Assembly (NCBI GenBank): GCA_965178125.1
Contig: OZ237736.1
Span: 558,001 to 622,000, forward strand
Direction: 5' to 3'
DNA length: 64,000 nt
Source: Bilabrum cf. latius
Taxonomy: Eukaryota
Below the pieces are notes generated by a model. It worked only from the letters and a program-made list of their open reading frames with translations, made no database searches and was not told the DNA's origin. The position numbers and the translations under genes are program-made. Position 1 is the first letter of the stretch; every line of letters begins with the position of its first letter. Shown here in pieces: positions 1 through 64,000 of this stretch.

Positions 1-2468
1 ATTCAGCGCTGAGCGTGCAGGCATCAGGTGCGACCCAGAATGGTGGAGCACATGAAGTCTCGGTCAGCACGGGCAGTTTGAATGATGGTCCTGTGCCGGC
101 AACGTTCGGTGCAATTGCAGGCCCGTACGCCGTCTACAGAGGCATCGTCAACGCCAGAGCATACCCGCCGCCCCCCAATGCCACGCTGCCCGCTGTGTCA
201 GGCGGTCGATGGCTGCCCTACAGGACGCAGGTCTACGGTTACTTCCAGGGCCGTGTGGCAGTGATGGCCGTGTGCGACAATCCTGACGATGTGCCCGTGG
301 ATCCCGGTGTGGAGGCCGCCATGGGTCGGGGCTCGCAGGGCGGGTGGTCGTTGGCAGCGAGCGTGCATCGCATCTGGTACTCTTACTGGCTGGGATATCC
401 TGGTCTAGTCTAGAATGTGTCGGCATTGGTACAGCGTCGGCTGGCTCCAGTGTCAGCTGGTGTGCAGCTGCGTTGGAACGGCGGTAGTACCCGTCTTCCG
501 GTGTCGTATGATGGGAACAGCACAGTTGATAGCTTGGTGCCTCGCATGGAATGCCGATCGGAAGAATCGCCTGGCCTTGGATCTGCCCGCAGCATGTATC
601 GATCTGACTGGGCCCGCCACCTGGGCGCCAGCCGCGCTTCCCTGTGGTTTGACCTGGCGTTTGACCGGAACCGGTGGCCCGCTGCACAATCGTGGATGGG
701 CGAGCACATCGGCCAGGCGCCCGGTGTAGACCATCCCCATCCGTCGAACAAGCAGCTGCGCTGGCTGGAGGATGACTTGCTGGACGATCTGCAGGATATG
801 GCTGGGGAGGGCGACATGGACCAGGTGCGGTCCTGGCGGGTGGAGGTGTTGCAAGTAGATGCGTTGCCCGCTGAGCCTGCCCCATCGGGTGATTCACTGA
901 ATGTGTCCCAGCTGTGGATGCGCCTGTCAGTGCAGGTGCATGTGGGCGAGCCAGATGGGGCCGCTCGGACGCAGGTGGCAGGCATGGCATTCTAGCGGTC
1001 CATGTCGGCTGGGTCGGTGGTGGATCGGGTGGTACCAGTGCTGCGCGGGAATCGCGGGGGAGCTCTCGCAGGCACGTGGCTGCTGGCAGTGGACATGGGT
1101 AGTGTCGGCTATCGCATCCAGCTCCCCTGTCTGCGTTCGTCGGTGGAGGCATACGCCGAAGACTGCAATACCGTCGGGGCGATGTGGATGCATCGGGGCG
1201 CCACGTGGGCACAGCTGCTTGCAGTGACGGCGATGATAGCCTGCAGCATGGTGTACGCGGTGTCATGTTGGTATGCTGTGTGCAGACTGCAGGCTTCGAT
1301 TGACCTGGAGATCATCTCGGCGAGCGCGTGTCGGGTCTGCCGGATGGTGCTGCACTGGGTGCTTGCGGCGCAGCTGGTTCGAGCGCGGCTGGACGGGCCG
1401 GGTGACGTGTGGATCATAGCTCTGAGCCTGGGATTGGTATTGCGCGCGATCCTGATCGGATGCTGTAGAATGGACATTGCCAGTCGGTATGTGTTGGAAT
1501 CAGGTGAACAGCAGTAGCACGGCAGAGCGGGTGCAGTCCATGATGGAAATCAGTACCGGCGCAGGGATGCAGTCGTTCCGGAACCTGGGCTAGCAATCAC
1601 TAGCAAGCATGGAATGCTTTAGGCTGATACACGATCATGGAATGCGGATAGTGGAACAGGTCGGGCAGGAGTCATCAAATCCTTGGTTCTTGTTGAGACG
1701 ACGGTTGGCATAGCAGGGTGCAGGAATCCCAGCGCTGAATCGAAGTGGCCCCGCAATAGCGCTCACAGTAGATTGCGTCGCATTGTGTCGACATTGTCGC
1801 TGGCGTACCCCGTGCGATTGGCATTTATCAGAGTGATGGCCGTGCTGGATTGGGACACCTAGCTGCTGCTAGCATCGAGTTGCATCCAGGGAGGCTCGGG
1901 GTTGCGGAACACTGACAGTCGCGAGGCCCCCCTCATTGAAGAAGATGCGTCGGACCATGATAGAATAGTTGGGTAGATGTTTTCAGACTCCGAGTCGGAC
2001 CTTGTGGTCCCCAGCTCGAACCGCAGGACGGATAGCTCAATTAGAGTAGCGCAGGTTGTTGGAGTACGGGGCGACGATCCCCTAGGTAGAGCAACATCGA
2101 ACCGTTGTCGCTCACATCAGCAGACAACTCTGACCCGTCGCGTACTGTTGGACATCAGTGTGTATGGCTGGTACATGCGGGTAGCGGAGGATCTTGTGCT
2201 GGTAGCTGTCTTAGTGTGGTCGGCATTGTGTACTGCAGGCGTGTGCAAGTGGTCGGCCTGCAGTTGGAATGACATCGGGTCAATCGAGGGCGTGCCTCAG
2301 GAACTGGTGGCCTGGCAGCGAGTGCAAGAGGTTGGGTTGGTGTGGTCAGCTTGCCTGTGCGCAGCATTGATCTCCTTGGCAATAATCGCTATGGGTCTTA
2401 TTGCGGGAATCAACGGACTAGGTGGCATTGTGGCTGCTTCTAAACCTGCGTCAAAGCGGCTGACTTGA
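1..2468 (+). CDS. Array gene copy 1 (5'-partial): large secreted/multi-TM hypothetical protein
   Basis: ORFs 15-413, 417-995, 1002-1517 and 1977-2468 share one frame and are separated only by TAG. The frame ends at TGA 2466-2468. Confidence 0.8.
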
Positions 2469-2668
2469 ATCCGGGTGGACGATCAATGCGAGCGACTTCC
2501 CGACCTGGATAGATCTACCTAAGTGTTGTCTTTACCAGCGCTTGAATCCTTCTCGTATCCCAGTGTTGTTTGACCATTCGTCCGATTTATGCTAAAACTT
2601 GCCCTTTTTGCAGCCACTGATCAATGTCCACTGGCGGCCTTGGTCGTGACGAGAAGGAGGACCAAAAC

Positions 2669-5600
2669 ATGCAGTTGCACATCGAGACGAAAAAGCGCAG
2701 CTTTGGCATGCTTGTGGTATTCCTTGCTGCACTGATACACCACACGAATTCATATACACACTCTTATAGTATTGACTCGTACTAGCCAAGCACCTCATTC
2801 CGGTTTGGCGCTTGCACCAAGGACAAGCGACTGAATTAGTACCGGCTGAGGTCGCAACAGTGTAACTGTAAGGCAAGCCGATGAGTTACGTCATGCTAGC
2901 AAATATCAAAAGATATCCGAATTTTCCGATCGTCGCATTTTCTGTTCGCAGCGACATGGGTTGTGTCAGATGGGGCTTCGAAGCTTGGCATCGCTGAATC
3001 GAATCGAACTGTTAGGATTCTGTCCGCAAGCTCAGCGTTTCGCATGAATACTTCAAGCGATCCATCTCGCTGTGATATGATCTCGCCTCCATGGAACGGT
3101 TGGGGATTGACCCCGAGCTCACAGCATCCGCCCGTGTTCAAACGGTGGCGATGGCTGACTGGCCCCGCAGTTCCGTCCCCAAGCCACGCATCACCATCCG
3201 CGATCAGCTGTAGATCAGCTGGAGAGTCGTTTGTGCCATCAATAGGAGTCCACGTTGCTATGCCAGGAGCAAGCGCGTTCTAGCTGCCCCCTCCCTCTGT
3301 CGAGTTGGTCCCACCGGAGCGCCAGGACCTAGTGTTGCCTCCTGATCGGGTGGCTGAGCCATTCACGGTGGAGGCTTGGTTTACGCAGATACGCACCGGC
3401 GATGGGACAAATATTTTGGGACGACAGCCTAGGACGTACAGCGGTACGCAAGGGTACAGCAACACTATCACTTACACACCGCTGTAGGACACAACCTCGT
3501 TGCAAATACGCGCAATTGAGGTCATACATAACCCATTCAGACTATGTGCGAGCAGCACCATTGTGGTATGCCCTGTGGAGTGGTATGACCCGGCCTGCTC
3601 CCCCATGGACCAGCCTGTCGATCCCAGGGACATCTGTCTGCAGACCACCGTGTGGCCCATCCAGGGGACGGGATACCCAGCTCGTGCTCGGGTTCCCTAT
3701 TCCTCTCGACAGAACCATTCATCTGCAGTGCAGTGCCCCGTGAAGTACACATCGAGGCAGCCCATCGACAAGCTGGCCCCGGCTGGTGGCCCCCTCCCGC
3801 TTCCTGATGAGTACAACACCACGGGAGTGGCGGTGCGCATCACGTCGGCCTGCGTAGACTCTCGAGTGCTGCTGACTCGGCGGCGGGACGGCAACAGCGC
3901 GGCGCAGCAGACAGCCAAGTGGCACCAGTCTCTCACCACGGTATATCCACCCGGCTCTGTGGCTGTGCTGCCGTATGGTGAGGATGTAGAGATCGTGGGC
4001 GAGGCTAAGGACTACGCTTGGCGCGTGAATCGAGGACACGTGCTTGCGTTTGTGTTGGATGTGCCGGCATCGGAGCTGTATCCGTGGAATGTGACATCAC
4101 TGGGTGGCAATGGCAGTGCTGCTACTAGTCCGAAGAGAGATGTGCTCTGCTAGGGCGTATCGGTGAATCCTGGCTAGAAAATGCCGTATGTCCCATCCCG
4201 GGCAGTCTTGCTGGACGATGCGTCTTGCGTGGGTTCCCGCTCCTGCACCCCCGACACGGGCAGCATCACCGACAGGCAGGATCCTCGCATGCAGGCCTTG
4301 CTGAAGCAGTACGCCGAGAGCGATGCTGTCCGAGGGCCATTCCCGAGTGTTCGCGTGGGATGCGCGATCTCGTATGATGTGGACTTCAGCCGGTACCGTA
4401 GCGGGCTGATACCGATGGACATGCCAGCATCGCAGAACGGGATGTCGACAATGTTCGGGGGCAAGGACGCGCCATACAACACTCGCAGCGGCGTTGTGGT
4501 GGCGGACCGAGGGCGGTACGAGCCTCCAGCGAACAATTCAGCGCTGAGTGTGCAGGCATCAGGTGCGACCCAGAATGGTGGAGCACATGAAGTCTCGGTC
4601 AGCACGGGCAGTTTGAATGATGGTCCTGTGCCGGCAACGTTCGGTGCAATCGTAGGCCCGTACGCCGTCTACAGAGGCATCGTCAACGCCAGAGCATACC
4701 CGCTGCCCCCCAATGCCACGCTGCCCGCTGTGTCGGGCGGTCGATGGCTGCCCTACAGGACGCAGGTCTACGGTTACTTCCAGGGCCGTGTGGCAGTGAT
4801 GGCCGTGTGCGACAATCCTGACGATGTGCCCGTGGATCCCGGTGTGGAGGCCGCCATGGGTCGGGGCTCGCGGGGCGGGTGGTCGTTGGCAGCGAGCGTG
4901 CATCGCATCTGGTACTCTTACTGGCTGGGATATCCTGGTCTAGTCCAGAATGTGTCGGCATCGGTACAGCGCCGGCTGGCTGCAGTGCCAGCTGGTGTGC
5001 AGCTGCGTTGGAACGGCGGTAGTACCCGTCTTCCGGTGTCGTATGATGGGAACAGCACGGTTGATAGCTTGGTGCCTCGCATGGAATGCCGATCGGAAGA
5101 ATCGCCTGGCCTTGGATCTGCCCGCAGCATGTATCGATCTGACTGGGCCCGCCACCTGGGCGCCAGCCGCGCTTCCCTGTGGTTTGACCTGGCGTTTGAC
5201 CGGAACCGGTGGCCCGCTGCACAATCGTGGATGGGCCAATACATCGGCCAGGCGCCCGGTGTAGACCATCCCCATCCGTCGAACAAGCAGCTGCGCTGGC
5301 TGGAGGATGACTTGCTGGACGATCTGCAGGATATGGCTGGGGAGGGCGACATGGACCAGGTGCGTTCCTGGCGGGCGGAGGTGTTGCAAGTAGATGCGTT
5401 GCCCGCTGAGCCTGCCCCATCGGGTGATTCACTGAATGTGTCCCAGCTGTGGATGCGCCTGTCAGTGCAGGTGCATGTGGGCGAGCCAGATGGGGCCGCT
5501 CGGACGCAGGTGGCAGGCCTGGCATTCTAGCGGTCCATGTCGGCTGGGTCGGTGGTGGATCGGGTGGTACCAGTGCTGCGTGGGAATCGCGGGGGAGCTC

Positions 5601-7003
5601 TCGCAGGCACGTGGCTGCTGGCAGTGGACATGGGTAGTGTCGGCTATCGCATCCAGCTCCCCTGTCTGCGTTCGTCGGTGGAGGCATACGCCGAAGACTG
5701 CAATACCGTCGGGGCGATGTGGATGCATCGGGGCGCCACGTGGGCACAGCTGCTTGTAGTGACGGCGATGATAGCCTGCAGCATGGTGTACGCGGTGTCA
5801 TGTTGGTATGCTGTGTGCGGACTGCAGGCTTCGATTGACCTGGAGATCATCTCGGCGAGCGCGTGTCGGGTCTGCCGGATGGTGCTGCATTGGGTGCTTG
5901 CAGTGCAGCTGGTTCGAGCGCGGCTGGACGGGCCGGGTGACGTGTGGATCATAGCTCTGAGCCTGGGATTGGTATTGCGCGCGATCCTGATCGGATGCTG
6001 TAGAATGGACATTGCCAGTCGGTATGTGTTGGAATCAGGTGAACAGCAGTAGCACGGCAGAGCGGGTGCAGTCCATGATGGAAATCAGTACCGGCGCAGG
6101 GATGCAGTCGTTCCGGAACCTGGGCCAGCAATCACTAGCAAGCATGGAATGCTTTAGGCTGATACACGATCATGGAATGCGGATAGTGGAACAGGTCGGG
6201 CAGGAGTCATCAAATCCTTGGTTCTTGTTGAGACGACGGTTGGCATAGCAGGGTGCAGGAATCCCAGCGCTGAATCGAAGCGGCCCCGCAATAGCGCTCA
6301 CAGTAGATTGCGTCGCATTGTGTCGACATTGTCGCTGGCGTACCCCGTGCGATTGGCATTTATCAGAGTGATGGCCGTGCTGGATTGGGACACCTAGCTG
6401 CTGCTAGCATCGAGTTGCATCCAGGGAGGCTCGGGGTTGCGGAACACTGACAGTCGCGAGGCCCCCCTCATTGAAGAAGATGCGTCGGACCATGATAGAA
6501 TAGTTGGGTAGATGTTTTCAGACTCCGAGTCGGACCTTGTGGTCCCCAGCTCGAACCGCAGGACGGATAGCTCAATTAGAGTAGCGCAGGTTGTTGGAGT
6601 ACGGGGCGACGATCCCCTAGGTAGAGCAACATCGAACCGTTGTCGCTCACATCAGCAGACAACTCTGACCCGTCGCGTACTGTTGGACATCAGTGTGTAT
6701 GGCTGGTACATGCGGGTAGCGGAGGATCTTGTGCTGGTAGCTGTCTTAGTGTGGTCGGCATTGTGTACTGCAGGCGTGTGCAAGTGGTCGGCTTGCAGTT
6801 GGAATGACATCGGGTCAATCGAGGGCGTGCCTCAGGAACTGGTGGCTTGGTAGCGAGTGCAAGAGGTTGGGTTGGTGTGGTCAGCTTGCCTGTGTGCAGC
6901 ATTGATCTCCTTGGCAATAATCGCTATGGGTCTTATTGCGGGAATCAACGGACTAGGTGGCATTGTGGCTGCTTCCAAACCTGCGTCAAAGCGGCTGACT
7001 TGA
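2669..7003 (+). CDS. Array gene copy 2: ~1,416-aa hypothetical protein with signal-like N-terminus and C-terminal hydrophobic segments (TAG=Gln; intron 2868-2951)
   Basis: ATG 2669 gives MQLHIETKKRSFGMLVVFLAALIHHTNS. An 84-nt GTAAGG...TTCGCAG intron removes the in-frame TGA at 2882. ORFs 2963, 3305, 3500, 4181, 5537 and 6512 are all in frame, with 12 internal TAGs in total. Ends at TGA 7001-7003. Confidence 0.8.
2868..2951 (+). other. Spliceosomal intron of the array gene (also 7403-7486 and 11938-12021)
   Basis: GTAAGG donor and pyrimidine-rich TTTTCTGTTCGCAG acceptor. Removing it joins the signal-peptide exon to the main frame. Confidence 0.7.
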
Positions 7004-7203
7004 ATCCGGGTGGACGATCAATGCGAGCGACTTCCCGACCTGGATAGATCTACCTAAGTGTTGTCTTTACCAGCGCTTGAATCCTTCTCGTATCCCAGTG
7101 TTGTTTGACCATTCGTCCGATTTATGCTAAAACTTGCCCTTTTTGCAGCCACTGATCAATGTCCACTGGCGGCCTTGGTCGTGACGAGAAGGAGGACCAA
7201 AAC

Positions 7204-10200
7204 ATGCAGTTGCACATCAAGACGAAAAAGCGCAGCTTTGGCATGCTTGTGGTATTCCTTGCTGCACTGATACACCACACGAATTCATATACACACTCTT
7301 ATAGTATTGACTCGTACTAGCCAAGCACCTCATTCCAGTTTGGCGCTTGCACCAAGGACAAGCGACTGAATTAGTACCGGCTGAGGTCGCAACAGTGTAA
7401 CTGTAAGGCAAGCCGATGAGTTACGTCATGCTAGCAAATATCAAAAGATATCCGAATTTTCCGATCGTCGCATTTTCTGTTCGCAGCGACATGGGTTGTG
7501 TCAGATGGGGCTTCGAAGCTTGGCATCGCTGAATCGAATCGAACTGTTAGGATTCTGTCCGCAAGCTCAGCGTTTCGCATGAATACTTCAAGCGATCCAT
7601 CTCGCTGTGATATGATCTCGCCTCCATGGAACGGTTGGGGGTTGACCCCGAGCTCACAGCATCCGCCCGTGTTCAAACGGTGGCGATGGCTGACTGGCCC
7701 CGCAGTTCCGTCCCCAAGCCACGCATCACCATCCGCGATCAGCTGTAGATCAGCTGGAGAGTCGTTTGTGCCATCAATAGGAGTCCACTCTTTCATGCCA
7801 GGAGCAAGCGCGTTCTAGCTGCCCCCTCCCTCTGTCGAGTTGGTCCCACCGGAGCGCCAGGACCTAGTGTTGCCTCCTGATCGGGTGGCTGAGCCATTCA
7901 CGGTGGAGGCTTGGTTTACGCAGACACGCACCGGCGATGGGACAAATATTTTGGGACGACAGCCTAGGACGTACAGCGGTACGCAAGGGTACAGCAACAC
8001 TATCACTTACACACCGCTGTAGGACACAACCTCGTTGCAAATACGCGCAATTGAGGTCATACATAACCCATTCAGACTATGTGCGAGCAGCACCATTGTG
8101 GTATGCCCTGTGGAGTGGTATGACCCGGCCTGCTCCCCCATGGACCAGCCTGTCGATCCAAGGGACATCTGTCTGCAGACCACCGTGTGGCCCATCCAGG
8201 GGACGGGATACCCAGCTCGTGCTCGGGTTCCCTATTCCTCTCGACAGAACCAGTCCTCTGCAGTGCAGTGCCCCGTGAAGTACACATCGAGGCAGCCCAT
8301 CGACAAGCTGGCCCCGGCTGGTGGCCCCCTCCCGCTTCCTGATGAGTACAACACCACGGGAGTGGCGGTGCGCATCACGTCGGCCTGCGTAGACTCTCGA
8401 GTGCTGCTGACTCGGCGGCGGGACGGCAACAGCGCGGCGCAGCAGACGGCCAAGTGGCACCAGTCTCTCACCACGGTATACCCACCTGGCTCTGTGGCTG
8501 TGCTGCCGTATGGTGAGGATGTAGAGATCGTGGGCGAGGCTAAGGACTACGCTTGGCGCGTGAATCGGGGACATGTGCTTGCGTTTGTGTTGGATGTGCC
8601 GGCATCGGAGCTGTATCCGTGGAATGTGACATCACTGGGTGGTAATGGCAGTGCTGCTACTAGTCCGAAGAGAGATGTGCTCTGCTAGGGCGTATCGGTG
8701 AATCCTGGCTAGAAAATGCCGTATGTCCCATCCCGGGCAGTCTTGCTGGACGATGCGTCTTGCGTGGGTTCCCGCTCCTGCACCCCCGACACGGGCAGCA
8801 TCACCGACAGGCAGGATCCTCGCATGCAGGCCTTGCTGAAGCAGTACGCCGAGAGCGATGCTGTCCGAGGGCCATTCCCGAGTGTTCGCGTGGGATGCGC
8901 GATCTCGTATGATGTGGACTTCAGCCGGTACCGTAGCGGGCTGATACCGATGGACATGCCAGCATCGCAGAACGGGATGTCGACAATGTTCGGGGGCAAG
9001 GACGCGCCATACAACACTCGCAGCGGCGTTGTGGTGGCGGATCGAGGGCGGTACGAGCCTCCAGCGAACAATTCAGCGCTGAGCGTGCAGGCATCAGGTG
9101 CGACCCAGAATGGTGGAGCACATGAAGTCTCGGTCAGCACGGGCAGTTTGAATGATGGTCCTGTGCCGGCAACGTTCGGTGCAATCGTAGGCCCGTACGC
9201 CGTCTACAGAGGCATCGTCAACGCCAGAGCATACCCGCTGCCCCCCAATGCCACGCTGCCCGCTGTGTCAGGCGGTCGATGGCTGCCCTACAGGACGCAG
9301 GTCTACGGTTACTTCCAGGGCCGTGTGGCAGTGATGGCCGTGTGCGACGATCCTGACGATGTGCCCGTGGATCCCGGTGTGGAGGCCGCCGTGGGTCGGG
9401 GCTCGCGGGGCGGGTGGTCGTTGGCAGCGAGCGTGCATCGCATCTGGTACTCTTACTGGCTGGGATATCCTGGTCTAGTCCAGAATGTGTCGGCATTGGT
9501 ACAGCGTCGGCTGGCTGCAGTGCCAGCTGGTGTGCAGCTGCGTTGGAACGGCGGTAGTACCCGTCTTCCGGTGTCGTATGATGGGAACAGCACGGTTGAT
9601 AGCTTGGTGCCTCGCATGGAATGCCGATCGGAAGAATCGCCTGGCCTTGGATCTGCCCGCAGCATGTATCGATCTGACTGGGCCCGCCACCTGGGCGCCA
9701 GCCGCGCTTCCCTGTGGTTTGACCTGGCGTTTGACCGGAACCGGTGGCCCGCTGCACAATCGTGGATGGGCGAGCACATCGGCCAGGCGCCTGGTGTAGA
9801 CCATCCCCATCCGTCGAACAAGCAGCTGCGCTGGCTGGAGGATGACTTGCTGGACGATCTGCAGGATATGGCTGGGGAGGGCGACATGGACCAGGTGCGT
9901 TCCTGGCGGGTGGAGGTGTTGCAGGTAGACGCGTTGCCCGCTGAGCCTGCCCCATCGGTTGATTCACTGAATGTGTCCCAGCTGTGGATGCGCCTGTCAG
10001 TGCAGGTGCATGTGGGCGAGCCAGATGGGGCCGCTCGGACGCAGGTGGCAGGCCTGGCATTCTAGCGGTCCATGTCGGCTGGGTCGGTGGTGGATCGGGT
10101 GGTACCAGTGCTGCGCGGGAATCGCGGGGGAGCTCTCGCAGGCACGTGGCTGCTGGCAGTGGACATGGGTAGTGTCGGCTATCGCATCCAGCTCCCCTGT

Positions 10201-11538
10201 CTGCGTTCGTCGGTGGAGGCATACGCCGAAGACTGCAATACCGTCGGGGCGATGTGGATGCATCGGGGCGCCACGTGGGCACAGCTGCTTGCAGTGTCGG
10301 CGATGATAGCCTGCAGCATGGTGTACGCGGTGTCATGTTGGTATGCTGTGTGCAGACTGCAGGCTTCGATTGACCTGGAGATCATCTCGGCGAGCGCGTG
10401 TCGGGTCTGCCGGATGGTGCTGCACTGGGTGCTTGCGGCGCAGCTGGTTCGAGCGCGGCTGGACGGGCCGGGTGACGTGTGGATCATAGCTCTGAGCCTG
10501 GCGTTGGTATTGCGTGCGATCCTGATCGGATGCTGTAGAATGGACATTGCCAGTCGGTATGTGTTGGAATCAGGTGAACAGCAGTAGCACGGCAGAGCGG
10601 GTGCAGTCCATGATGGAAATCAGTACCGGCGCAGGGATGCAGTCGTTCCGGAACCTGGGCTAGCAATCACTAGCAAGCATGGAATGCTTTAGGCTGATAC
10701 ACGATCATGGAATGCGGATAGTGGAACAGGTCGGGCAGGAGTCATCAAATCCTTGGTTCTTGTTGAGACGACGGTTGGCATAGCAGGGTGCAGGAATCCC
10801 AGCGCTGAATCGAAGTGGCCCCGCAATAGCGCTCACAGTAGATTGCGTCGCATTGTGTCGACATTGTCGCTGGCGTACCCCGTGCGATTGGCATTTATCA
10901 GAGTGATGGCCGTGCTGGATTGGGACACCTAGCTGCTGCTAGCATCGAGTTGCATCCAGGGAGGCTCGGGGTTGCGGAACACTGACAGTCGCGAGGCCCC
11001 CCTCATTGAAGAAGATGCGTCGGACCATGATAGAATAGTTGGGTAGATGTTTTCAGACTCCGAGTCGGACCTTGTGGTCCCCAGCTCGAACCGCAGGACG
11101 GATAGCTCAATTAGAGTAGCGCAGGTTGTTGGAGTACGGGGCGACGATCCCCTAGGTAGAGCAACATCGAACCGTTGTCGCTCACATCAGCAGACAACTC
11201 TGACCCGTCGCGTACTGTTGGACATCAGTGTGTATGGCTGGTACATGCGGGTAGCGGAGGATCTTGTGCTGGTAGCTGTCTTAGTGTGGTCGGCATTGTG
11301 TACTGCAGGCGTGTGCAAGTGGTCGGCCTGCAGTTGGAATGACATCGGGTCAATCGAGGGCGTGCCTCAGGAACTGGTGGCCTGGCAGCGAGTGCAAGAG
11401 GTTGGGTTGGTGTGGTCAGCTTGCCTGTGCGCAGCATTGATCTCCTTGGCAATAATCGCTATGGGTCTTATTGCGGGAATCAACGGACTAGGTGGCATTG
11501 TGGCTGCTTCTAAACCTGCGTCAAAGCGGCTGACTTGA
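7204..11538 (+). CDS. Array gene copy 3
   Basis: Copy 2 shifted by +4535 with the same structure; TGA at 11536-11538. Confidence 0.8.
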
Positions 11539-11738
11539 ATCCGGGTGGACGATCAATGCGAGCGACTTCCCGACCTGGATAGATCTACCTAAGTGTTGTC
11601 TTTACCAGCGCTTGAATCCTTCTCGTATCCCAGTGTTGTTTGACCATTCGTCCGATTTATGCTAAAACTTGCCCTTTTTGCAGCCACTGATCAATGTCCA
11701 CTGGCGGCCTTGGTCGTGACGAGAAGGAGGACCAAAAC

Positions 11739-19543: not shown

Positions 19544-19703
19544 TGGTCCCGGATTCTCCAACTGCAACTGGGTTCGCATTGTGAAGTGATTGAAGCAAAG
19601 CGGTGATCTGCGCCCCTTGATCAGACACAAGGAATCATACAACAACTTCTAGTGTTGCCGGATCTAGGCAGCAATCGCACCCGACAATGCACTGGCGGAA
19701 ACT

Positions 19704-47778: not shown

Positions 47779-47882
47779 TCAATCCGGACATTCGAATGAT
47801 TTGTTTGTGCTCAAGTGCAAGCGGAACCAGCATTGCGCGGCGCCATTAATCGTGTGTGGATTCATTCTTGCTGCTCCGCGCG

Positions 47883-52084: not shown

Positions 52085-52203
52085 CGGAAATATTGAAATA
52101 GTATAAGTTGTCTTGATCGGTGTGCTTGATAGGCGAGAGGAAGATCGCAAGCTTCCTTGAGCGGAACCAGTCAACTTGCAGGCGCCGCGCATGTCGACAC
52201 GGA

Positions 52204-55200
52204 TCAACCACGTTTCAGCGAGCTCCGGTCCATGAAAATGGAGATCCGGCCCTGCCCACTCGGTTGCCCAGCCGCACTTTTGTCCTTTCCGCCGTGCAAG
52301 CTCCCCGAGCGGCCCAGCCCGAGCAGAGAGGAGCGCCTGCGGTGGGAGGCTGCAAGCCTCGTGTTCGCGATGCCGCTCTTCGCGGGCCGTTCGTCTTGAT
52401 CGGCTACGCTTTCAACTGCACCTTCTTTCCTTGCTTCCTGCTGCTCGGCTGCGGATCCAGAGCCCTGCGCTTTGCCAGCATCATCGTCCTGCAGCAGGCT
52501 GCCACCACCCGAAAACGGCATCGTGCAGAGGCTCTGCCTGCCTCTAGCGAGCTTCTTTCTCATCCCGTTGCCCTTGTCCTTGCCCTTGCCAAGCCGAAGC
52601 AGGCCACCACCACCAGCGCCCTCCCTTCCCTTGGCTGCCGGCTTGGAAGGCATCGCTGACTGCCTCCTCTTGGGAGCCCTCCCGCCCGCATCTGGTGCCA
52701 AGAGCTTCACAAAGGAGCCAGCGATGTCCCCTCCATCGTCATCGTCGTCCTCATCGTCATCGAATCCAAGGGAAGCTTCCTCTTCCTCGGCATCAATCTC
52801 CACACTGCCGGCACGGGGGCCATCGGCATCCACTCCACGACGCCGCCGCGCCGCATGCCTAGGCACAGCCGGCGGACCGGCACCGTGCTAGGAAGTTGGA
52901 GTCACCCCAGCTTCCTCGTCAGAAGGCGAAGCGATTGCACTGCTGAAGCCACCTTCAGCAGATGACTTCGCATCAGCGGGGCGTGTACCAAGCCGAGCCA
53001 GCATCGGCAGCTTCGGAACTCCGTGGTTTCCGCTGCCACCAGCACCAGGCAGTACTGCAGGCCCCAGCCCCTCCTCTGAGGTCGGCTCAATGACTCCGTC
53101 CATGCTATCCTCCTCCTGCTCTGGGTCGGCGAATGGGTCGTAGTCGTCTGCTGGTGACCCGCCTTTGGATGGTCCCTCGCCCGACGAAGGCGAAGCAGAT
53201 CCGCTGCTGAACTCGCCGTCGCTTGCAAGTCTCGACTGCGGCAGGAGATCTTCCTCTTCTTCTTCGTCGTGCACGTGCTGCGTGCCGAGGGTGGCATACC
53301 CCGAAGGTGAGGCTGCCAAGAGATCGCTCTCGTCCAGCGAACTGCCGTGTGAACGTGAAGCATCTGTGGGTGAACCCACATCCTTGAAACTGGCAGCAAG
53401 GCTGCTTCCATTTGCTGGTTTCCCGTCCATGGTGCTATCTGTATTCTCCAAGATCTCGCTGCCGAGAAGATCCGGCGATGCGCCTTCATGTACTGTCTGA
53501 GCGTGACAGGCTGGAGTTCTGTGCTGGCCGTGGTGCTCATCGCCCAGCAAAGATGCCAGGGCGGATCGGGCGCTTCGCGACTGGGAATCACTAGCTGTAG
53601 CATTGCGAAGCCTGGCAGCAGCACGTCGCAGCCTGTCATCGTGATGTCCCTCCATCAAGGAGATGATGATGTCGATCGCGGGTACGGTTGGGGTCCTCTG
53701 CGGCGTCTCGGCGGTGTCGGTCCCACTCGACGTGGCGGCATCAGGCTACTGCACAGGGGTAGTAGCTGCCTGCTTGATGGGCACTTCTGCAAAGGCGTTT
53801 TCCTCCGAATCTGCGCTGGCCTGCTGGCTTGAGTTCTCTTGGTCGAGGTGCTAGCCTGGCTCTTGTGGCCTGTTTGAGGTGCCCCCTCGCTCACTTCGCG
53901 TCAGTTCACCCTTTCCTGTGATAGCCACAGCCTTGTCATTACCTTCCTTGCTCTGTGTAGCCTCCCTTTTCTCGTCCTCACCGGGCTGCTGCTCGTCTTG
54001 TACCGACTCATCCAGGCAAGAGTCGCTTTGGAACAGGATCCGGGGCCTGCCCACATCAGAGTCTAGGGACGCAGATGACATGGAGCTCTCGTTCAAGTCG
54101 TTTGCGCTGTCGTTTCGGGCGAAGAGCCCAGTGGGTGTATGGTTGCAGTGATCGGAAGCTATGGGTGCAGTGCTGCCGGGCTCGCTGCTGCTGGCGTGCC
54201 CGATGGCCTGACTCCACCACGACGCTTCTGGTGCCACACCAGGGCTAGGCGCCGCCCGACCTGACTGCTTCTAGCTGTCGCCTACCACGTCGCGATCATC
54301 CACGATTGGGCCCCAAACGTCCTCCACCTCGCACAGAAGGTCGTCTTCCTCCTGTCTCTCCTGCTCGTCGTCAGCGCACTGCCACCACGCCTCTCGCTAC
54401 TCCGCCAGCTCATCAACCTCGGCCTCTCCACCGAAAGGTGGAAGCTTGATGCCGTATCGCCGATAGGCCGCCCTACGTAGGGCCGTATGTTCCCACGCAC
54501 GAGCATTCGTGGTGTCCTCCGTGTCTCTGTGCACCACAGCGTGGTACAGCCCCTCGTACAGCTTGGGGCCGTTGGGAGACCCCGTCTTGGGGTTGAGGTA
54601 CCTGTACGTACCGCCGGGACCGACACGTTTGGGCACCAGGCCAGTTGCCTTGCGCATGCGTGCATCTGCAGTGCGTCGTGACCGCGCCATCCGACCGAGC
54701 CCGGCCTAGATGCCGGCCACCGCCGCTCTTGTGACCTTGGAAGTGAGCTTGCGCTTCGGATGCTTGCCCGGAGTGAATCCTGGCTTCGGGTCGATGCTTG
54801 CAGAAAGCATGCTTTCACTGCTATTGTCACTCCCGCTGGACTGATCACCGCCAGCGCCGAAGATAGGCGGCACGGGGTGGTGTAGCGGGTAGCTGACACG
54901 GCGTTGCAGCTCCTCGCACAGCATCCTCGACCGCTCCAGGCTGAGGCTTGCGGGCACCACTGCATCCGTTGGAGATGAATCGACCTCAACGGCAACATTT
55001 CGAGAGCTGCGACCATCGTGCGCGAGCGGTCGATTGGCATGAAGGGGCGGCACGTGGCTGACGGCTGCCCTGCCCCCTGCGTACCCAGTGACAGGTACCC
55101 CAGGCTCAGGGGAGGCGAATTCTCCGTGCAAATGCGATCCATCGCTGGGTCCCTTGCAGCCCTTAGACGAGTCGCCGTGAGCCCCTCCTCCTAGCGGATG

Positions 55201-56674
55201 CTCCAGGTCGTAACGGAATTTGCGCGGTGTGGCATGCACCACCGTGTGGGTAGGAGCTCGTCCTGCTGAGTGCTGGCGCCCAGGTGATGCACCACTTGCG
55301 CACTCCCCTTCAGTTGGCTTGCTGCTAGAGCCAGCGGCTCTAGCAGCAGCTAGAAGCCTTCGCTCTGCGTTTCGAGCAGTGGAGATTGCAGCGATCTCTC
55401 GCGCGATGGCTGCGATCGACATGGTCGCAATGCCTGGCAGAGCAGAAGCCTTGGCGTCAACAGCGGCGCCAGAGTCAGCCTTACTAGCCGGCTTCTCCTC
55501 GACACTAGCAGTAGGCAAGATCTGGGCTGAGCAAAGTGATCGCGTCTCGCTGCTTGCCGTTGCAGCACCTCCTACTTCTGGGTCCACCTGGCTCTCGGCC
55601 GCCTGGCTTGCCACCATGTCACCCGAGTCTGCACTTCCACCGTTAGAAGCGGCATTGGCTCCGGTCCTTTTGTCATCTTGGCTGCCCTCATGCGAGTCCG
55701 AAGAGGTTGCGCTGTTTGGCGCCTCCTCGTCTTGCCCTTGCGCATGGGAGGAGACAGCTGTTGGGCTGGCATCACCCAGCTGGGAAGCTCTCGTCGCCGG
55801 TTCCTTCTCTCGAGCCGTGGGAATGGCTGGCGGTGGTACCAGGGGAGATGCAGCCTTTAGAATGGCAGGTGGATCCTTCGGTGCGGGTGCGGGTGATTTT
55901 GCTGCCTTATCCGGAATGCTGGAACCAGCCGCTGTAGCTGCGGTCACTGCAGAGGAGTCCTCTCTTTTGGCTCTGCTCCCAACCAGCCGTGAGACGGGGG
56001 GTGGAGTTCGTGCTCGTGCCTTTAGAGCCGCTCTGGAGGAGCTCGGTGCTGTCGCCGATTCCTCCTCCGGCCCGCCTAGCAGGCTCCCACCCTTGCGGGG
56101 CAGCTCGAGGCTTGTCCTCCTTCGCCTCTGCGCAGCGAGTGATTTAGCTCGTGCGCGAATCTCTGCAATCTTTGCCGCTGCCCTCGCCTTTCCGATGGAT
56201 CGACTGTCTACCTTGGTGCTGATCGTAGAGCTGGGTTGCTGCGCGCTTCCTGCCTTGTCGCTTACGCTGGTTCCGAAGCGGTGGAAGGCTGCCTCGGCCA
56301 TCCGAGCGCGAGGAGATGGATGTCTGCTGCCAGCAGCGCCTGCTGCTGACTAGGAATTAGCTGTTCCAGATAGTGACAGTGACTTCTTTGCAGGTGGGCA
56401 AGGGCTGAGCATCGAGGCGCCGGGTTTTTGAGACTTTGCTCTGGATACCCGGACTGGTTGAACGGTGCCCGACTCCTGTGCATCCTGCGAAATAGAGGCG
56501 GTTTATTGCTAGATATACGTTGATTAAAACATCAGGCAGGCTCAAGTTTGCATCTCTAAAGACCCTCACAGCAGATGATGATGTCCCAAGCTTGCCGGCG
56601 GCGGACGGCGTGTTGCTGCTCAACGCAGAAAGTGCTTTTCTGCTTTTCCCAGAGCCCTGAAGCGGACTAAACAT
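52204..56674 (-). CDS. Large low-complexity hypothetical protein (~1,460 aa); intron 56485-56569
   Basis: ORFs 54706, 54397, 53851, 52888 and 52204 are in one frame with 7 TAGs. A GTGAGG...TTTCGCAG intron links them to ATG 56674. Ends at TGA 52204-52206. Confidence 0.65.
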
Positions 56675-56888: not shown

Positions 56889-58775
56889 ATGAGCATGTTT
56901 GCGGTCGGACGGAAGAGTGGAGGGCTGAAGGCGAGCGATCCACTAATCGATTACATTCTTACCTAGCTGCAAACCAGTGCTGCACCTTTAGACGGCGAGT
57001 CCAGCTTGCCGCCCAGCATTCCTATTGCGAAGACTTACGGTGATGCACTGCGAGCAATTCTTGGCCGCATTGAGCCACTGACGCATCCTGAGAGGACCGA
57101 TGCGATCCGCAAGCAAGTTCCCGGAGTGGGGCGATTCCACGTGCCTTTGCCGCTGGTAGACGCTCTTGTGGAGTATGATTCGTACACAAGACTATTGCAC
57201 AGATGTTTTGTGGCTCCAACGTTTCGGGAGGTCCGTCACATCCTGAATATCGCTGCAATCGATGCCACTGTTCGTAGTGAGGATGGTGTGAGGCTCGTAA
57301 CACTGGATGCGGACGAAACGATATACTCTGACGGAGGGACAGTATCTCCAGATTCTCCGATGGTACCACTCATTTCCAGGCTGCTTACTAGCGGGGTGCG
57401 AGTGTCTCTAGTCACAGCGGCTGGTTACACGGATCCAACGCGGTATGAGCAACGACTGAGCGGCCTGCTTCGAGCGTTCGAGCTTGCGATCGAGCTTGGG
57501 GCCGACCCATGCTTCTTGGATAGGTTCTTCGTCATGGGAGGTGAGGCCAATTACTTCCTCATCACCGAGCTGGAAGGCCGTCCCAGGCTCGCGACCGAAC
57601 CGTCTGCGGCTGAGGCAACTGCGTCATCACCTCCGGCGACTGCATCCACTGGCACTGCGGGGGCGAGCGGAGATGAAGAGGAGAAAGGATCCAAGCCAGC
57701 AGCCGGAGGCAAGTCCTCAGGCAGCGTTGACCCAGGGATGACAAGCAAGGCAAGCGTCGGGTCAGTCACCACGGGGGCTGTCCTGCCCTTCTCCCGCCTG
57801 AGGGTCAAGCTCAGGATGGTGCCGCCTTCGGAATGGAAGGACGGCAGGGGCGTCCGCTGGCCTCACGATAAGGTCAAGGACCTCCTAGATAAGGCTGAAA
57901 CATGCCTGGTGGAGACTGCCACCCGGCTGGGCTTAGACGTGCGCGTCATCCGCAAGGAGCGCGCTGTCGGGATCGTGCGTGCCGATGACGCTGAAGGCTC
58001 GAGGCTGCCGTACGAGGTTCTCGAGGAGATCTCTCTCGCCACGCAGCACGCGCTGCACGGGCACATCGTGCCGCACTGCGTGTTTAACGGCGGTGCTGAT
58101 GCTTTCGTGGATGTGGGGCACAAGGCTCTCGGCATCCGCGCTGTGCAGTCATACGCAGAGGCCACGCCTCGCAGCACCCTACACTTCGGCGACAGATATA
58201 CACGCACCGGGAACGACCGCAAGGCGCGGGCCGTGTCGTCTGGCGTGTGGGTGGCAGACCCTAGCGAGACGGAGCTTTTCTTGAACCTGCTCATACGCAA
58301 GCTGAGGGCACGGTCACGAGCAGAGCTTCGCAGGACAGGCGGAGCTGCTGCGCACGCGATTGGGCTGCACGATCAGTACGATGACGATAGCAGGTCAGTG
58401 GGAGGAAGCTCCATTGGCGGTGGATCGCTGGGTGGAGCTGCCGGTATTGCGGACGAGGATGGCACCGTAGCTGCCGGTAGCGCCGGCACGCGTGAGATTC
58501 GCAGGGGTGTCAGCCTTGCCACGCAGCAGATGATGAGAGCAAGGCACACGACTGCAATGGAGCGGTCGCAGTGGGAAAGTGCTGGTGGAGAGGTTGTCGG
58601 TCACGTCGGCCACGGGTCCGTACGCTCTGGGATGGGCACGCCGGTGGATGGGATGGACAGCCCGCTCGTTTCGGACGCTGACCCAGCAGCATCCAAGTCC
58701 GACCCACTGAAGCTTGCACTCGAAAGGTGCCTCTCCGATGGTGGGCGGAGTGGAACGCCCGGTAGTGACCTGTGA
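56889..58775 (+). CDS. ISN1: IMP-specific 5'-nucleotidase (HAD family)
   Basis: PTFREVRHILN, LVTLDADETIYSDG, VTAAGY, MGGEANY, RKERAVGI, FNGGADAFVDVGHK and LHFGDRY..GND motifs. ATG 56889 is reached only through TAG 56964. Ends at TGA 58773. Confidence 0.9.
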
Positions 58776-58938: not shown

Positions 58939-61900
58939 TCAATTAACACTGCCAGAGGAGCTCGCTGCAGTCTGGCCACCTTCTATTTTCCTCAGAGCCG
59001 ATCTTGCGTCCCTGATCACCTCCTCTGGGAATCCCGCCCCAGCTGCCACCTCGATGCCAAAGCTCTTCTGCGACATGCCGGGACAGACCTTGTACAGCAT
59101 CACAACCTCTCCATCGTGCACCTGCGCGTCCATGTGGAGCGCGCACACCCTGCGGGTTGCGGGCGGCTCACTGTTGGGTTTGGCATCGCCCGCACCCACC
59201 CTACTCTTCTTTGAAGGTCTCGAGCGACCGTCCTACGCACTGCCACCGCGCGCACTGCCTGTACCATCCTGCCCAATGCCCGCTGAAGCAGGGAATTCAT
59301 CGACCAGTGAAGCAAGCTCGTGGAAGTGCGTCGCCATCAGTGACATGCAACCGAGCGATGCGAGCTCGTGCGCCACAGCCCAGGCAATCCCGAACCCGTC
59401 GTGCGTGCTTGTGCCTCGTCCAATTTCGTCCAGCACCACAAGAGAGCGCGGTCCCACTCCTCGCAGCATAGATGCAGTCTCCAGCATTTCAGCCATGAAG
59501 CTGCTCACACCTTTTAGCTGATCGTCTGCCGAGCCAACACGAGCAAATATGCTTTCGAAGACAGGCAGCACCGCCTCGTCGGCAGGAACGAAGCACCCTG
59601 CCTGCGCCATCACGACGGCAAGAGCCACGCTCCGAATGTAGGTGCTTTTGCCTCCCATGTTTGGCCCACCTACTAGAGCAAAGCACGGCTACTCGCCAGC
59701 ACGGCCATCTCCTCCCCACCACTGCAGGTCGACGTCGTTCGGGATAAAGTCTGTCCCCAGGCTCGTCTCCACCACCGGGTGTCGAAGACCCCTCAGCTTG
59801 AGAGTGCCCAGCGGACCGCTTGAATCTGCCCTATCGAGCATTGTCGGCTTGGTGTACGGAACAGGAGCGCGAAGTGACACGCACGCGAATGAGGCAAGGG
59901 CATCCAGCGTGTGGATCACCGAGCTGAGGTCGGTGAGGACCGGCGCGTAAGTGGCAGCCACATTGAGAATCTCGAGGCCGTACTCCGACTGGGAGACAGC
60001 GTAGTCATTCTCTGCATCCTCTTCTGCCCTCGACGCGGAGAGAAAGCCTGATGTGGTAAAATGGACACCGTCCCGCTGTACGCTAAGCATGGTATAACCC
60101 CTCCTCAGCTTGCCGTTTCCGGCCGTCCGTCCCGACTTTGCAACGGCCTTGCGCCCCTTTCCTTTCGCGCTAGCACTGGATGATTCCCCTGCAGATTTCT
60201 CGTACAGAAGCTTCTACTACGATGTTGGTATTCGCATGTGCCGTCCTAGAATCGTGTTTGACTCTACTCGGATCTTGTCAGCAGAGGTCCCGACCTCGGC
60301 CGCAACGGACGCCACAGCTCGCTGCACTCCAGCTACTGCCGCAAAGAGCTGGTCATACTGATGCTGCAGCGCAGGCATTGCCTGAGGCCTGATAAGGTAT
60401 CGTTTCTAAGAACCAGCCCAGCCGCTCAGCGAGCTGAGAGCTGCTGGCTTGCTGGCAGACGCACCGAGCGCCTGCTCCACGTCCATTGTCGTTTCCACAA
60501 GCTTTCTAAACCCCTCGCATTTGTTGTCTATTCCGCGCAGGCTCGACAGTAGACTTGAAACTCCCGTGGTGGTGCTAGTATCACCTCGGTGATTTGCGCC
60601 GCCGCTGCCTGAGGCTCGTTTTCTCTTCGTGCCCGCCTGCTGCTTCGCACTAGTATCTGCCGAGCCGGAGCCATCTTCGCACACTTCAAGAAATCCTGGC
60701 AGCCTCAACCCTACGAACTCGTACAGGGCAATCAGGTCCCGTAAATCGGCCTGACGGGCCAGCAGCTTCGCTTGAATCCCATCGAGATCAGCGGAGCCCC
60801 GCAGGAATCGACGAGATCGAATCGCGTCAAGCAGCTGCGGGTGCTCCATGAGGTGGCCCACGCACTCATGTCTCCATCGAATCGTGCTAATCTCAGTGGA
60901 AGGCTGAGTCACCCACTGCCGCAACAACTGCGAACCCCCGGGCGTGCGGCAAGCATCCAGCATCTGCACCAGGCTAGTCCGCCCAGGCAACGATCTGGTG
61001 CTGCCATGCATGGGAGTCACAAGAAGAGAGCTCAATGCTGACCTGTCCATTCGAAGCATACCGTTCGGTCTAATTACCCTAAACTTCAATCCCTAGAGCG
61101 TGATTCCACCTGCAGACAAGGGAGCGATGGCTGTACCCCCGGAAGTCCTTCCCGGTGGTGATTGAGCCTGGCGCACAACTGCAGATGACGCGGACGACGG
61201 CATGAGCGGCGAACCTGCGCTGGCCGCCCCACTCGACGCGGATCGCCGGGGAGGGCTCGTAAATCTATTGAGGTGATCATCTTCACCTCTGTCACTAGCC
61301 TGCTTCGAGCTGGAACCGACCGACCCATCAGCAGCAGCGGCAGCGGGGGACAGGTTATCGCCCTCGCCCTCGCCCTTACAACTGCTTGGCACCTGCACGT
61401 ATGCAGGTTCGACGCTGGTCCCGGCCACTTGCACGTGGCCAATGTCTCGTAGCAATGCGTGCACTGCCAGTGCTGCAACCGGCATGGAGTCGAGGACGCC
61501 TGGGTGGTCAGAGTGGACAGGGCCGCTGCTAGTGTCCTTGCCGCTTGCAACTTGTGACTCTTCACGATCAGTGGATGCCGACAGCGCCCCTGGCGCAGCA
61601 GATGCAAACTTGCTCCAGTCGTCAGCTGCAGAAGAATGCGGATCACCGCTTCGGCTCGACTTGTCGACGGAGCTCATCGCTCTAGGCGCGCGGCCTCCGC
61701 CACTAGACCTGGGAGAACTCTCACCAACCGCGAGACAGTCTGCACATGCCAGCACAGCCATTCTTGCACCAGTTGCTGATGAGAGCCCTTTGCTATCCAC
61801 TTCAACCAGTCCTGGTACGTCGTCAACCTACAGCGACGTACTGAAGGCTGCATCCTAGGGTATGCCTTCGGCGACTGCCCTGACGATGGAACTAGCTAGC

Positions 61901-62703
61901 TGGGCTTGCCGCGCCGCAGGACCGGAGCTTGCTGAGCTGGAGGGTGGATCGTGTCCGGCATGAGCAGATGCAGATGCAATACGGACCAGCGATGATGGAA
62001 GGAGGCAAGACGACGACTTGTTCTGTGAGAGCAGTGCTGAAAGCTCTGACAACCCGCCTCCATGAGTCTGGGATGGAGGCGCGCTCTCGTTTGCAGTGGC
62101 CCCCGTTGCGACGGTTTGCGTTGACGAGCTACTGGAGCTTGAATGCTCGGTTGATTTGCGCGCTTCCCCATCAGCATGAGCTGGTAGACTCAGAGGACGT
62201 GCTTCCCACTCTGCCACTGCCAGTTCACCAGAAGCGTAGTTCAGGCAGCAGAATCCAATCGTTGGCGACGCACCAAGGGTGCACTGCAACGATGCCACGC
62301 TTGGGGCTTGTTGCACGATCCTGTCAAAGCACCCAGAGCACTCCGAGCGTCTCAGGCTTAGCCTACTAGAGGGTAGCAGTGGAGTACCCCCAAATAATCG
62401 AAGCAATTCAAAAGAGCAGCTGGGGCTCGCGTCGACAGCAACCTGCCAGCGCTGCCCATCGCCCTTCGGTGTCCCGCGTCGCTCTGCAGGAGCCAACACC
62501 TGTACCCGTGTGCCATGGTCAAGAACTAGAGCAGTGAGTACTTGTGCGACGGATTTCCGGGACAGTGAGCACTTCAATCCTGTTGTAAGGTTGCCAGTCA
62601 CTGCAATTGCTGCGCCAAGATGCTGCTAGCAACATTTTACATCATGAGGGTGCACTGCAAAGAATGCTCCTTGTTCTTTTGCCAGAAACCTAATTGGCAC
62701 CAT
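58939..62703 (-). CDS. MSH2: DNA mismatch repair MutS homologue, MSH2-like; 5' end uncertain
   Basis: CRTPGGSQLLRQWVTQP, QRDGVHFTT, LRHPVVE..FIPND, Walker A GGPNMGGKSTYIR, SSFMAEMLE, DEIGRGTSTHDGFG, ATHFHEL and SFGIEVA. One frame with 9 TAGs. Ends at TGA 58939-58941. Confidence 0.9.
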
Positions 62704-63368
62704 GCAGTCTGCAAAGACTCGGGCACAGTAGGCCTAAGTAGCTGTACAGGCACCAAAACTAGCCTTCGCAAGAGGCTTTTCTAAAGCTATCGATGGAGCC
62801 AGCCTTTGGATTGTCAGTGCTTAAATACAATAAAATATCCTGACGCACAATATTTCTGGCAACAGGCACTACCGAGTCTGCAAGAGGGAACTGAACGAAA
62901 GGAATCAAATCAAGATGATCTTCATCTTCGGCTCCCGCCGGCGTCACGGTGCCGGTGGGTGCTCCAACTGGAGGCACATACCACCGCCTTTTACTTGCGA
63001 GCCCGCATCTATCCCCTTGTACAAACAAGCACCTATGTCATTGATTCTTAAGCATGAAAGCTCGGGCGGGCTAGCTTCATTCCTTTCCCGCGACTCGCGC
63101 TAGCCCTTTATGCATACGCCCGAGACGATGTAGGCGAGACCTCTTCGATGGCCTGCCCCGGTGATGGCTAGTCCTCATCCTTGTGTCCTCCTCCTCGTCC
63201 CGCACCCCAGCTGCCAGACCGGTCAAATGCAATAGTACGGACTACCCAGCACTGGCACTGGCTGACTGCCCGCTAACTTTTCAATGATGTTGTTTATGTG
63301 CCCATGGTACAGTCTAGTGTAGCAAGGCAACTAACTGCCCATGCCAAGCCAACTGCCGCGATCCATCT

Positions 63369-64000
63369 TCAAAGCCTGCTTGCTTTGACGACAAACAAAG
63401 GGTCACATCGAGTACTACTTGGGAGGCCGAAAAGCTCCGGGCCTACACTCGTCAGGTCCCAGGCCTCGATCGGGCCCCAATGCAGCACCTGCGTGGTGCT
63501 GTCACTGCCTCCACCCCCACCCTCTGCATCCGCAACCGATACTGAGCTACTCTCGATACCACCCGCATCATCCGTCTAAGAAGTATCACCAGAAAATCGG
63601 ATCACATCGGCAGCGTAACAAATCTTCTCGGCGAGTCCGAATTCCAGCCAAGGCCTCACCGATTGGGTGGGAAAGCAGCGACTCGATACTGCGGCCATTA
63701 GGACGCCGCCCGGGCGAAGAAGCAACCCTGCTTCCCGCACCACTTGGAGAGGATGTGTAAGGTATTCAATGCTTAAGCTGCACGTTACAACGTCCAATGT
63801 GCTATCGCTGATTCCGGTAGCTGCCCCGAGGGATGCAGGGATTTGCCCTGGCCCCTTCGATTCAAGGGGTACGTACCGGCCCCGTGCTCGTCCATTGTTG
63901 GAACTCGTGGCACTCGGTTCGTGTTCGCGCCATGAAGCCTTGTCGTTCAAATCTAGTACCGTCCATCTGCCGCAATGACCTGGCAAGTCATGCAGAAGCG
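63369..64000 (-). CDS. SAM-dependent methyltransferase (5'-partial)
   Basis: DVVTCSLSIEYLTHPLQVVREAGLLLRPGG..SSRCFPT. The C-terminal DPLFVVKA is reached through TAG 63576. Ends at TGA 63369-63371. Confidence 0.8.

Follow-up and report, generated by a model that had tools for sequence, protein, structure and literature searches.

Introduction

UAG and UAA hardly ever change meaning one without the other, and few nuclear lineages split them. Here, we analysed a 64,000-nt stretch of contig OZ237736.1 from Bilabrum cf. latius (positions 558,001 to 622,000 of the forward strand; this whole stretch is called the window below), in which UAG appears to be read as glutamine (Gln, Q) while UGA ends nearly all of the genes. 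The closest described codes are those in which UAG without UAA encodes Gln, namely those of Iotanema spirale, Protocruzia tuzeti and two phyllopharyngean ciliate lineages (PMC11687900, PMC5304391). UAG has also been assigned to leucine (Leu, L) in a rhizarian (exLh) and a ciliate, and to serine (Ser, S) in Scotinosphaera (PMC11687900, PMC5304391).

The window resembles I. spirale (Fornicata) in that a non-ciliate nuclear genome reads UAG alone as Gln and keeps UAA out of coding sequence, but the primary terminator of I. spirale is UAA and its data come from a transcriptome only (PMC5304391), whereas in the window the main stop is the opposite one, UGA, which ends 16 of 17 genes, and the evidence is genomic DNA with introns. 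In a tree of the HGSNAT-like acetyltransferase encoded in the window (described below), the window groups with Cafeteria; the rows of this tree include no named metamonad, so the grouping is no test against a metamonad origin. The UAG-only ciliates (P. tuzeti and the two phyllopharyngean lineages) use the same code table, of the NCBI table 15 type (PMC11687900). The window differs from them in its GC content of 59%, its genes of 3-9 kb, its GT..AG introns of 86-108 nt and its tandem arrays. Ciliate macronuclear DNA is AT-rich and organised differently. The aphelid Amoeboaphelidium protococcarum is a further case of stop-to-Gln reassignment outside ciliates (PMC6299283, PMC5304391, PMC11687900), but both UAG and UAA are reported as sense there, whereas the window has no in-frame TAA, and the HGSNAT tree parts the window from the opisthokont rows. 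In exLh and Scotinosphaera, UAG is likewise decoupled from UAA, but the amino acid differs (PMC5304391, PMC11687900). With regard to the Leu assignment of exLh, Leu scores -22 in the columns of distant homologues aligned with the window, and a Leu codon stands at one of 12 changed TAG sites (both described below).

No report of a code with UAG alone as Gln in a stramenopile, or in any lineage beyond ciliates and Iotanema, was found in the literature searched, which lay largely outside subscription journals and supplements; the assembly itself, of about 2025, may already be described. A further non-ciliate case would be an independent replicate, and the present one offers genomic DNA and transcript evidence, along with a sister species in which codons can be compared. 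It opens the questions of how eRF1 and a transfer RNA (tRNA) with a CUA anticodon separate the two codons, and of whether GC pressure drives the change. Our best explanation of the window is that it belongs to the nuclear genome of a eukaryote with high GC and few introns, in which cytoplasmic translation decodes UAG as glutamine and uses UGA as the working terminator (probability about 0.86).

Reading UAG as sense restores long genes

Open reading frames (ORFs) were compared from stop to stop on both strands of the whole window under the standard code and with TAG, TAA or TGA each read as sense. Under the standard code, the longest ORF was 794 aa and none reached 1000 aa, while reading TAG as sense gave nine ORFs of at least 1000 aa, with a maximum of 2433 aa. 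In the control comparisons, TAA as sense gave no ORF of this length and TGA as sense gave one. Pfam domains in the TAG-sense ORFs comprised MutS_III, MutS_V, UCH, HGSNAT_cat, ISN1, ELO, Slo-like RCK, BK_channel_a, Ion_trans, Bac_rhamnosid_C, Ank and Methyltransf_11, and in the long ORFs they were distributed over the full span, flanking TAGs on both sides. The first-pass annotation had proposed that reading through TAG restores complete proteins, and the domains of MSH2, the ubiquitin-specific protease (USP), the BK channel, HGSNAT, ISN1, the ankyrin-repeat protein and the methyltransferase were all found in this way. The 17 genes traced are as follows.

1-16058, plus strand: tandem array of 4535-bp units, with ORFs at 3-2468 (partial), 2885-7003, 7420-11538 and 11955-16058, all ending in TGA
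16142-19579, minus strand: rhamnosidase-like (GH78-type) secreted protein with Bac_rhamnosid_C; 1145 codons, 8 in-frame TAGs; ends GAC TAA AAC TGA
26741-27766, minus strand: last exon of an ankyrin-repeat gene (Ank); 3 in-frame TAGs, ends in TGA; upstream exon at about 27896-28357, intron at 28088-28195
28705-30015, plus strand: ORF with no Pfam family; TAGs at 29302 and 29677; ends in TGA
30246-33812, plus strand: ubiquitin-specific protease (UCH); 9 in-frame TAGs; ends in TGA
34193-35497, plus strand: ELO/GNS1-SUR4 fatty-acid elongase, start codon uncertain; coding sequence (CDS) without TAG; ends in TGA
35893-45083, plus strand: Slo/BK-type K+ channel; exons 35893-37699 and 37801-45083, separated by a 101-nt GT..AG intron (37700-37800); 11 in-frame TAGs; ends in TGA
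45290-47779, minus strand: gene with no Pfam family; exon 45290-47406 with 5 TAGs, 86-nt intron 47407-47492; ends in TGA
47883-48740, plus strand: ORF with no Pfam family; 1 in-frame TAG (48099); ends in TGA
48974-52192, minus strand: HGSNAT-like acetyltransferase (HGSNAT_cat); 4 in-frame TAGs; ends in TGA
52204-56412, minus strand: low-complexity protein with no Pfam family; 7 in-frame TAGs; ends in TGA
56889-58775, plus strand: IMP-specific 5'-nucleotidase (ISN1); 1 in-frame TAG (56964); ends in TGA
58939-62703, minus strand: divergent MSH2 (MutS_III and MutS_V); 9 in-frame TAGs after the first ATG; ends in TGA
63369-63998, minus strand: 3' part of a methyltransferase (Methyltransf_11) that runs off the window; 1 in-frame TAG; ends in TGA

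Each ORF was then cut back to its first ATG or to an exon edge; the rhamnosidase-like gene was cut back to the start in common with a related library protein (P0195). The trimmed set of 16,898 codons contained 98 in-frame TAGs and neither an internal TAA nor an internal TGA, which bears out the statement of the annotation that both are missing from the traced exons; when one array copy only was counted, there were 71 TAGs in 13,441 codons. The remaining two frames of the same DNA held 331 TAG, 112 TAA and 675 TGA triplets. The gene ends also agreed with those listed at first pass, with 16 of 17 at TGA, one at TAA (position 16142) and none at TAG.

In-frame TAGs were present in 16 of the 17 genes, the exception being the ELO CDS, and the four array ORFs carried 6, 10, 9 and 12 of them after the first ATG. 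The early hand counts of about 65 TAGs in single-copy genes and about 40 in the array compare well with the 67 and 40 (6+11+10+13) that we found in the stop-to-stop ORFs. Most of these are coding, as had been supposed, but some probably lie 5' of the true start, namely the TAG at 34175 in the ELO ORF, those at MSH2 codon 29 and array codon 5, and four in the rhamnosidase-like ORF. The ELO TAG precedes the first ATG and is not covered by the RNA-like contigs described below, which start at 34272 and 34275; it is therefore not a coding TAG.

UAG is retained in spliced, transcript-like contigs

At least part of the stretch 30100-40000 was contained in 13 sequencing runs from eight studies, and four runs (four studies) were compared over 28001-48000. 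There were no sequence variants among the four runs over this interval. In the run X1, which is the probable source, one 38-kb contig spanned 28001-48000 without any difference from the window. Contigs of X5 and X6, runs from two studies that are both other than that of X1, were gene-sized and omitted 37700-37800 (GT..AG), 47407-47492 and 28088-28195 (both CT..AC on the plus strand, which for 47407-47492 is GT..AG on the minus strand), while the X1 contig kept all three. Contig depth varied up to about 40-fold between genes. The skipping of introns and the differences in depth between genes indicate that the X5 and X6 contigs behave as transcripts. One X5 contig of 9324 nt joined 37699 to 37801, fusing the two BK frames exactly (one base and two bases make up one codon) with no other letter. 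The ORF at 28705-30015 and the USP gene were each contained in one X5 contig (28469-30028 and 30166-33970, respectively), again with no other letter, and in the gene at 45290-47779 an X5 contig joined 45204-47406 to 47493-47779.

All 27 coding TAGs in 28001-48000 lay inside X5 pieces without a single other letter, and X6 agreed wherever it covered them; these are assembled contigs, not raw reads. The check on TAG in mRNA thus came out as the annotation had anticipated, as splicing in the transcript-like contigs removed no more than three short introns and left all 27 TAGs as they are. Moreover, the X5 and X6 contigs terminated 83-158 nt 3' of the TGA stops, after kilobases in which they ran past internal TAGs. 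It has to be set against this evidence that the RNA nature of X5 and X6 is read from the splicing and the gene-sized pieces, and that the run label itself is a guess.

Sequencing error, editing and splicing-out are ruled out for the 20-kb stretch. For the window in general, an artefact or a lack of translation, through sequencing error, C-to-U editing, unrecognised introns or a pseudogene tract, has a negligible probability. We found no point in its favour, while the contigs of four runs from four studies are identical and the TAGs are kept in spliced contigs. Nine TAG sites are also conserved in an independent metagenomic relative, where they are surrounded by excess synonymous change, and 24 of the 43 codon differences between two array copies are synonymous (both comparisons are given in the next section).

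The same contigs bear on whether UAG might be ambiguous, that is sense within genes and stop at some gene ends, or only partly suppressed. Ambiguous stop/sense codes occur in Condylostoma, karyorelicts and Blastocrithidia, and the sample here is 17 gene ends, with support that comes from sequence, not from observed translation. However, TAG ends none of these 17 genes, small as the sample is, and the contigs pass internal TAGs for kilobases but stop soon after TGA. Were UAG only partly suppressed, genes with as many as 12 TAGs would yield hardly any full-length protein. We consider an ambiguous or partly suppressed UAG highly improbable.

Close relatives and array copies point to glutamine

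The codon-level comparison used three metagenome contigs (L001, L002 and L003) with 86-88% protein identity, which between them cover the rhamnosidase-like and ankyrin genes as well as the 3' part of an array gene. Codon pairs were accepted where gap-free flanks were at least 75% identical, which gave 2,082 pairs from three genes. Nine TAG sites were conserved and 12 changed, and nine of the changed sites were CAG while none was GAG. Seen from the other side, the commonest partner of CAG was TAG (9, vs 6 for CAA), and for the control codons the commonest partner was always a synonymous one (TTG/CTG, TCG/TCA, GAG/GAA, AAG/AAA and TAC/TAT). The probability of at least nine CAG among 12 changes is 4e-4 at p = 0.25, that is even with a quarter of TAG changes going to CAG by mutation bias. 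In the last exon of the ankyrin gene, compared with L002, two TAGs were conserved and one paired with TCG. On these alignments, UAG as Gln would be common to at least one further species-level lineage (metagenomes, 88% protein identity).

Copies 2 and 3 of the array differ at 43 codons, 24 of them synonymously. TAG and CAG were exchanged between array copies at two sites (copy 2 codon 1323 and partial copy codon 137), and there was no TAG exchange of any other kind.

The protein library gave a similar picture for the rhamnosidase-like gene. Four library proteins (P0194, P0197, P0198 and P0199; 87-100% identity) are pieces that begin or end exactly at window TAGs because gene callers stopped at TAG; standard-code gene callers shred the genes of this organism, and the library already contains its proteins as TAG-cut fragments. 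P0195 (94% identity) has Q at a window TAG, and ends where the window has CAG and both L001 and L002 have TAG.

At conserved sites, the USP TAG at 30663 (aa 169) falls on the second of the three Gln in the GYQQQD of USP15; we take the Gln-Gln-Asp box at this site to be a conserved USP motif, and compared it here with USP15 only. At the HGSNAT TAG at 49135 (aa 1093), Q is the modal residue (19 of 68 homologues) and is present in six of the ten closest. A TAG of the BK channel aligns with Q in Drosophila Slo and with S in Aplysia BK.

Several observations speak against Gln, or fail to single it out. A Codetta-like tally was based on nine TAG columns from four genes, each with at least 20 distant homologues, while 12 of the 25 TAG columns of these genes had fewer than 20. 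The log-odds summed over the nine columns were -1.38 for E, -1.60 for Q and -2.08 for S, within 0.7 log units of each other, and the tally rules out no residues beyond L, W, Y, F, M, C and H, the first six of these with scores of -22 or lower. At codon 595 of the rhamnosidase-like gene, a TAG in both species, the 131 distant homologues mostly carry V, A or P (117 of them) and never Q, and MSH2 codon 1044, the only usable MSH2 TAG column, aligns with K in 37 of 97 homologues. Among close relatives, three of the 12 changed TAG sites pair with TTG, TCG and ACG (one each). TAG to CAG is also a transition, so that mutation alone gives some excess; however, TGG is likewise one transition from TAG and paired with TAG at none of 64 sites. 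We read the result from distant homologues as coming from too few and too variable columns, and not as support for another residue. The expectation of the annotation that aligned columns favour Gln was therefore borne out by close relatives, USP and HGSNAT, but not by the distant columns, which leave E, Q and S unseparated.

A sense UAG that encodes another residue, e.g. Glu, Ser or Leu, would fit the position of E just above Q in the log-odds, with S close by, and the single pairings with TTG, TCG and ACG. Against this stand the nine CAG among the 12 changed sites, with GAG at none, TCG at one and TTG at one, together with the Q of P0195 at a window TAG, the Gln sites of USP and HGSNAT, and the scores of -22 or lower for L, W, Y, F, M and C. 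Another residue at UAG thus seems very improbable to us. Glutamine is supported as the best reading of UAG by these sequence comparisons. The core claim of the annotation is upheld accordingly, its sense part by ORF structure, homology and the TAGs in transcript-like contigs, and its Gln part by the nine of 12 changes to CAG, the TAG/CAG exchange in the array and the conserved Gln in USP, HGSNAT and BK.

UGA terminates and UAA is kept out of coding sequence

UGA is clearly a terminator, as the annotation had it. It ends 16 of 17 genes, the TGA of the array gene is common to the relative, and the transcript-like contigs end shortly 3' of the TGA stops, 83-158 nt beyond. The relative also has the TGA that lies two codons beyond the TAA in the rhamnosidase-like gene.

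For UAA, the main evidence is its absence. No internal TAA was found, against an expected number of about 24-28 from the CAA:CAG ratio or 8.6-9.8 from the TTA:TTG ratio, which is the most conservative, and the probability of zero internal TAAs is 2e-4 to 8e-13 across ratios. When TAA was added as sense, no gene pieces merged, and the longest ORFs grew by no more than 28 codons, on the 3' side of the one TAA-ended gene and otherwise at 5' ends. There was also no TAA in the 2,082 aligned codons of the relative.

The one gene end at TAA is equivocal. The window reads GAC TAA AAC TGA at 16142-16150, while L001 and L003 read GAC TAC AAC TGA, a Tyr codon having become TAA two codons before the ancestral stop. 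As the relative has TAC here and the TGA follows two codons on, this single TAA end gives no evidence of termination. The proposal that UAA remains a stop was therefore only partly sustained, in that UAA is kept out of coding sequence (0 vs 8.6-28 expected) but its sole use at a gene end is equivocal. Excluded from coding sequence, UAA would be a stop or else a codon with no assignment, and a role as stop is deduced from its absence inside genes.

The same position could be taken to mean that UAA is sense, and that both UAG and UAA encode Gln with UAA being rare from high GC. A code of this kind (table-6 type) has been reported in Amoeboaphelidium, hexamitin diplomonads and many ciliates. The sole TAA end at 16142, with TAC in the relative and a shared TGA two codons on, could be sense under such a code, and TAA is the rarest of the three triplets in the whole window (441, vs 1078 TAG and 1691 TGA). 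However, zero internal TAAs in 16,898 codons is to be compared with 8.6-27.8 expected and with about 56 in each off-frame, and neither the failure of TAA to merge any gene pieces nor its absence from the aligned codons of the relative fits a sense codon. We regard a shared Gln meaning of both codons as quite improbable, and keep to the reading of UAG alone as Gln.

A possible mechanism and the affiliation of the lineage

A tRNA-Gln with the anticodon CUA would read UAG but not UAA, and would probably have arisen from tRNA-Gln(CUG) through one anticodon change. In parallel, eRF1 would have lost its affinity for UAG while UGA and probably UAA are still recognised. We propose the CUA tRNA and the eRF1 change on the basis of the established mechanism set out in PMC5304391, where loss of UAG recognition by the eRF1 of Iotanema is proposed to involve a T32G change in the GTS motif.

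The best named homologue of HGSNAT was that of Cafeteria roenbergensis (43% identity), and those of ISN1 were from oomycetes. The named homologues of the divergent MSH2 were from fungi and animals, all at about 30% identity and without taxonomic signal, and the ELO search gave the family only, with no useful taxa. There were no ciliate homologues among the best named matches of ISN1, HGSNAT and MSH2. The HGSNAT tree was a quick maximum-likelihood tree of 38 rows from one gene, under a model without mixture and with composition warnings on the clade of the window. In this tree, the window fell into a clade of five rows (SH-aLRT 97), of which Cafeteria was the only named member, apart from Amoebozoa and from Capsaspora with Metazoa. 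The introns are of the GT..AG type and 86-108 nt long.

A ciliate origin is unlikely because of the GC content, the gene structure and the HGSNAT tree. That the organism is not a ciliate and represents an independent origin is plausible from the 59% GC, the introns and the grouping of HGSNAT with Cafeteria. An aphelid (Amoeboaphelidium) was considered in view of small shares of the stretch 30100-40000 in runs labelled as algae or as protist metagenome, and is unlikely, as there is no in-frame TAA and in view of the HGSNAT tree. More tentatively, and at somewhat less than even odds, the window may represent an independent, decoupled origin of UAG as Gln in a supergroup for which no nuclear code change was found in the literature searched. 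The lineage would probably be heterotrophic and stramenopile-affiliated, and the code would be fixed in a clade of at least two species, with UGA as practically the only terminator and UAA maybe unassigned.

Other features of the window

Neither tRNA genes (ARAGORN) nor Rfam matches were found in the 64-kb window, which does not contain the eRF1 gene either, and Tandem Repeats Finder gave nothing with its period limit of 500, which is below the unit sizes later found by a repeat search. The array consists of about 3.5 tandem copies, and the C-terminal third of the last copy has diverged. The array proteins, of about 1320 aa each, match no Pfam family, and have hydrophobic C-terminal stretches that resemble transmembrane segments when judged by eye. 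At least one array-type gene is present in the relative L003, where it is convergent with the rhamnosidase-like gene.

A second set of repeats lies at 20400-26700, where a unit of about 1230 bp is present in five copies in tandem, which are 62-96% identical over the compared stretches and contain ORFs without a Pfam match. L002 lacks this satellite-like block (about 7 kb, 19769-26651), as its rhamnosidase-like gene directly adjoins the ankyrin gene.

Some of the single-copy proteins are unusual in their own right. No match to MutS_I or MutS_II was found in the N-terminal part of the MSH2 homologue, which is about 560 aa long and has abundant Ser and Ala runs. The ISN1 library protein P0001, which is 74% identical and comes from another assembly, stops at ...LFLKLLI, while the window and more distant homologues run on to a conserved ...W-E-S/C-A-G-G; this suggests that in the source of P0001, too, an in-frame TAG may have been taken for a stop in gene calling. 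The BK/Slo channel has about 3030 codons, with more than 1000 low-complexity residues between the conserved pore, RCK1 and RCK2 parts, and these residues are kept in the spliced 9.3-kb contig.

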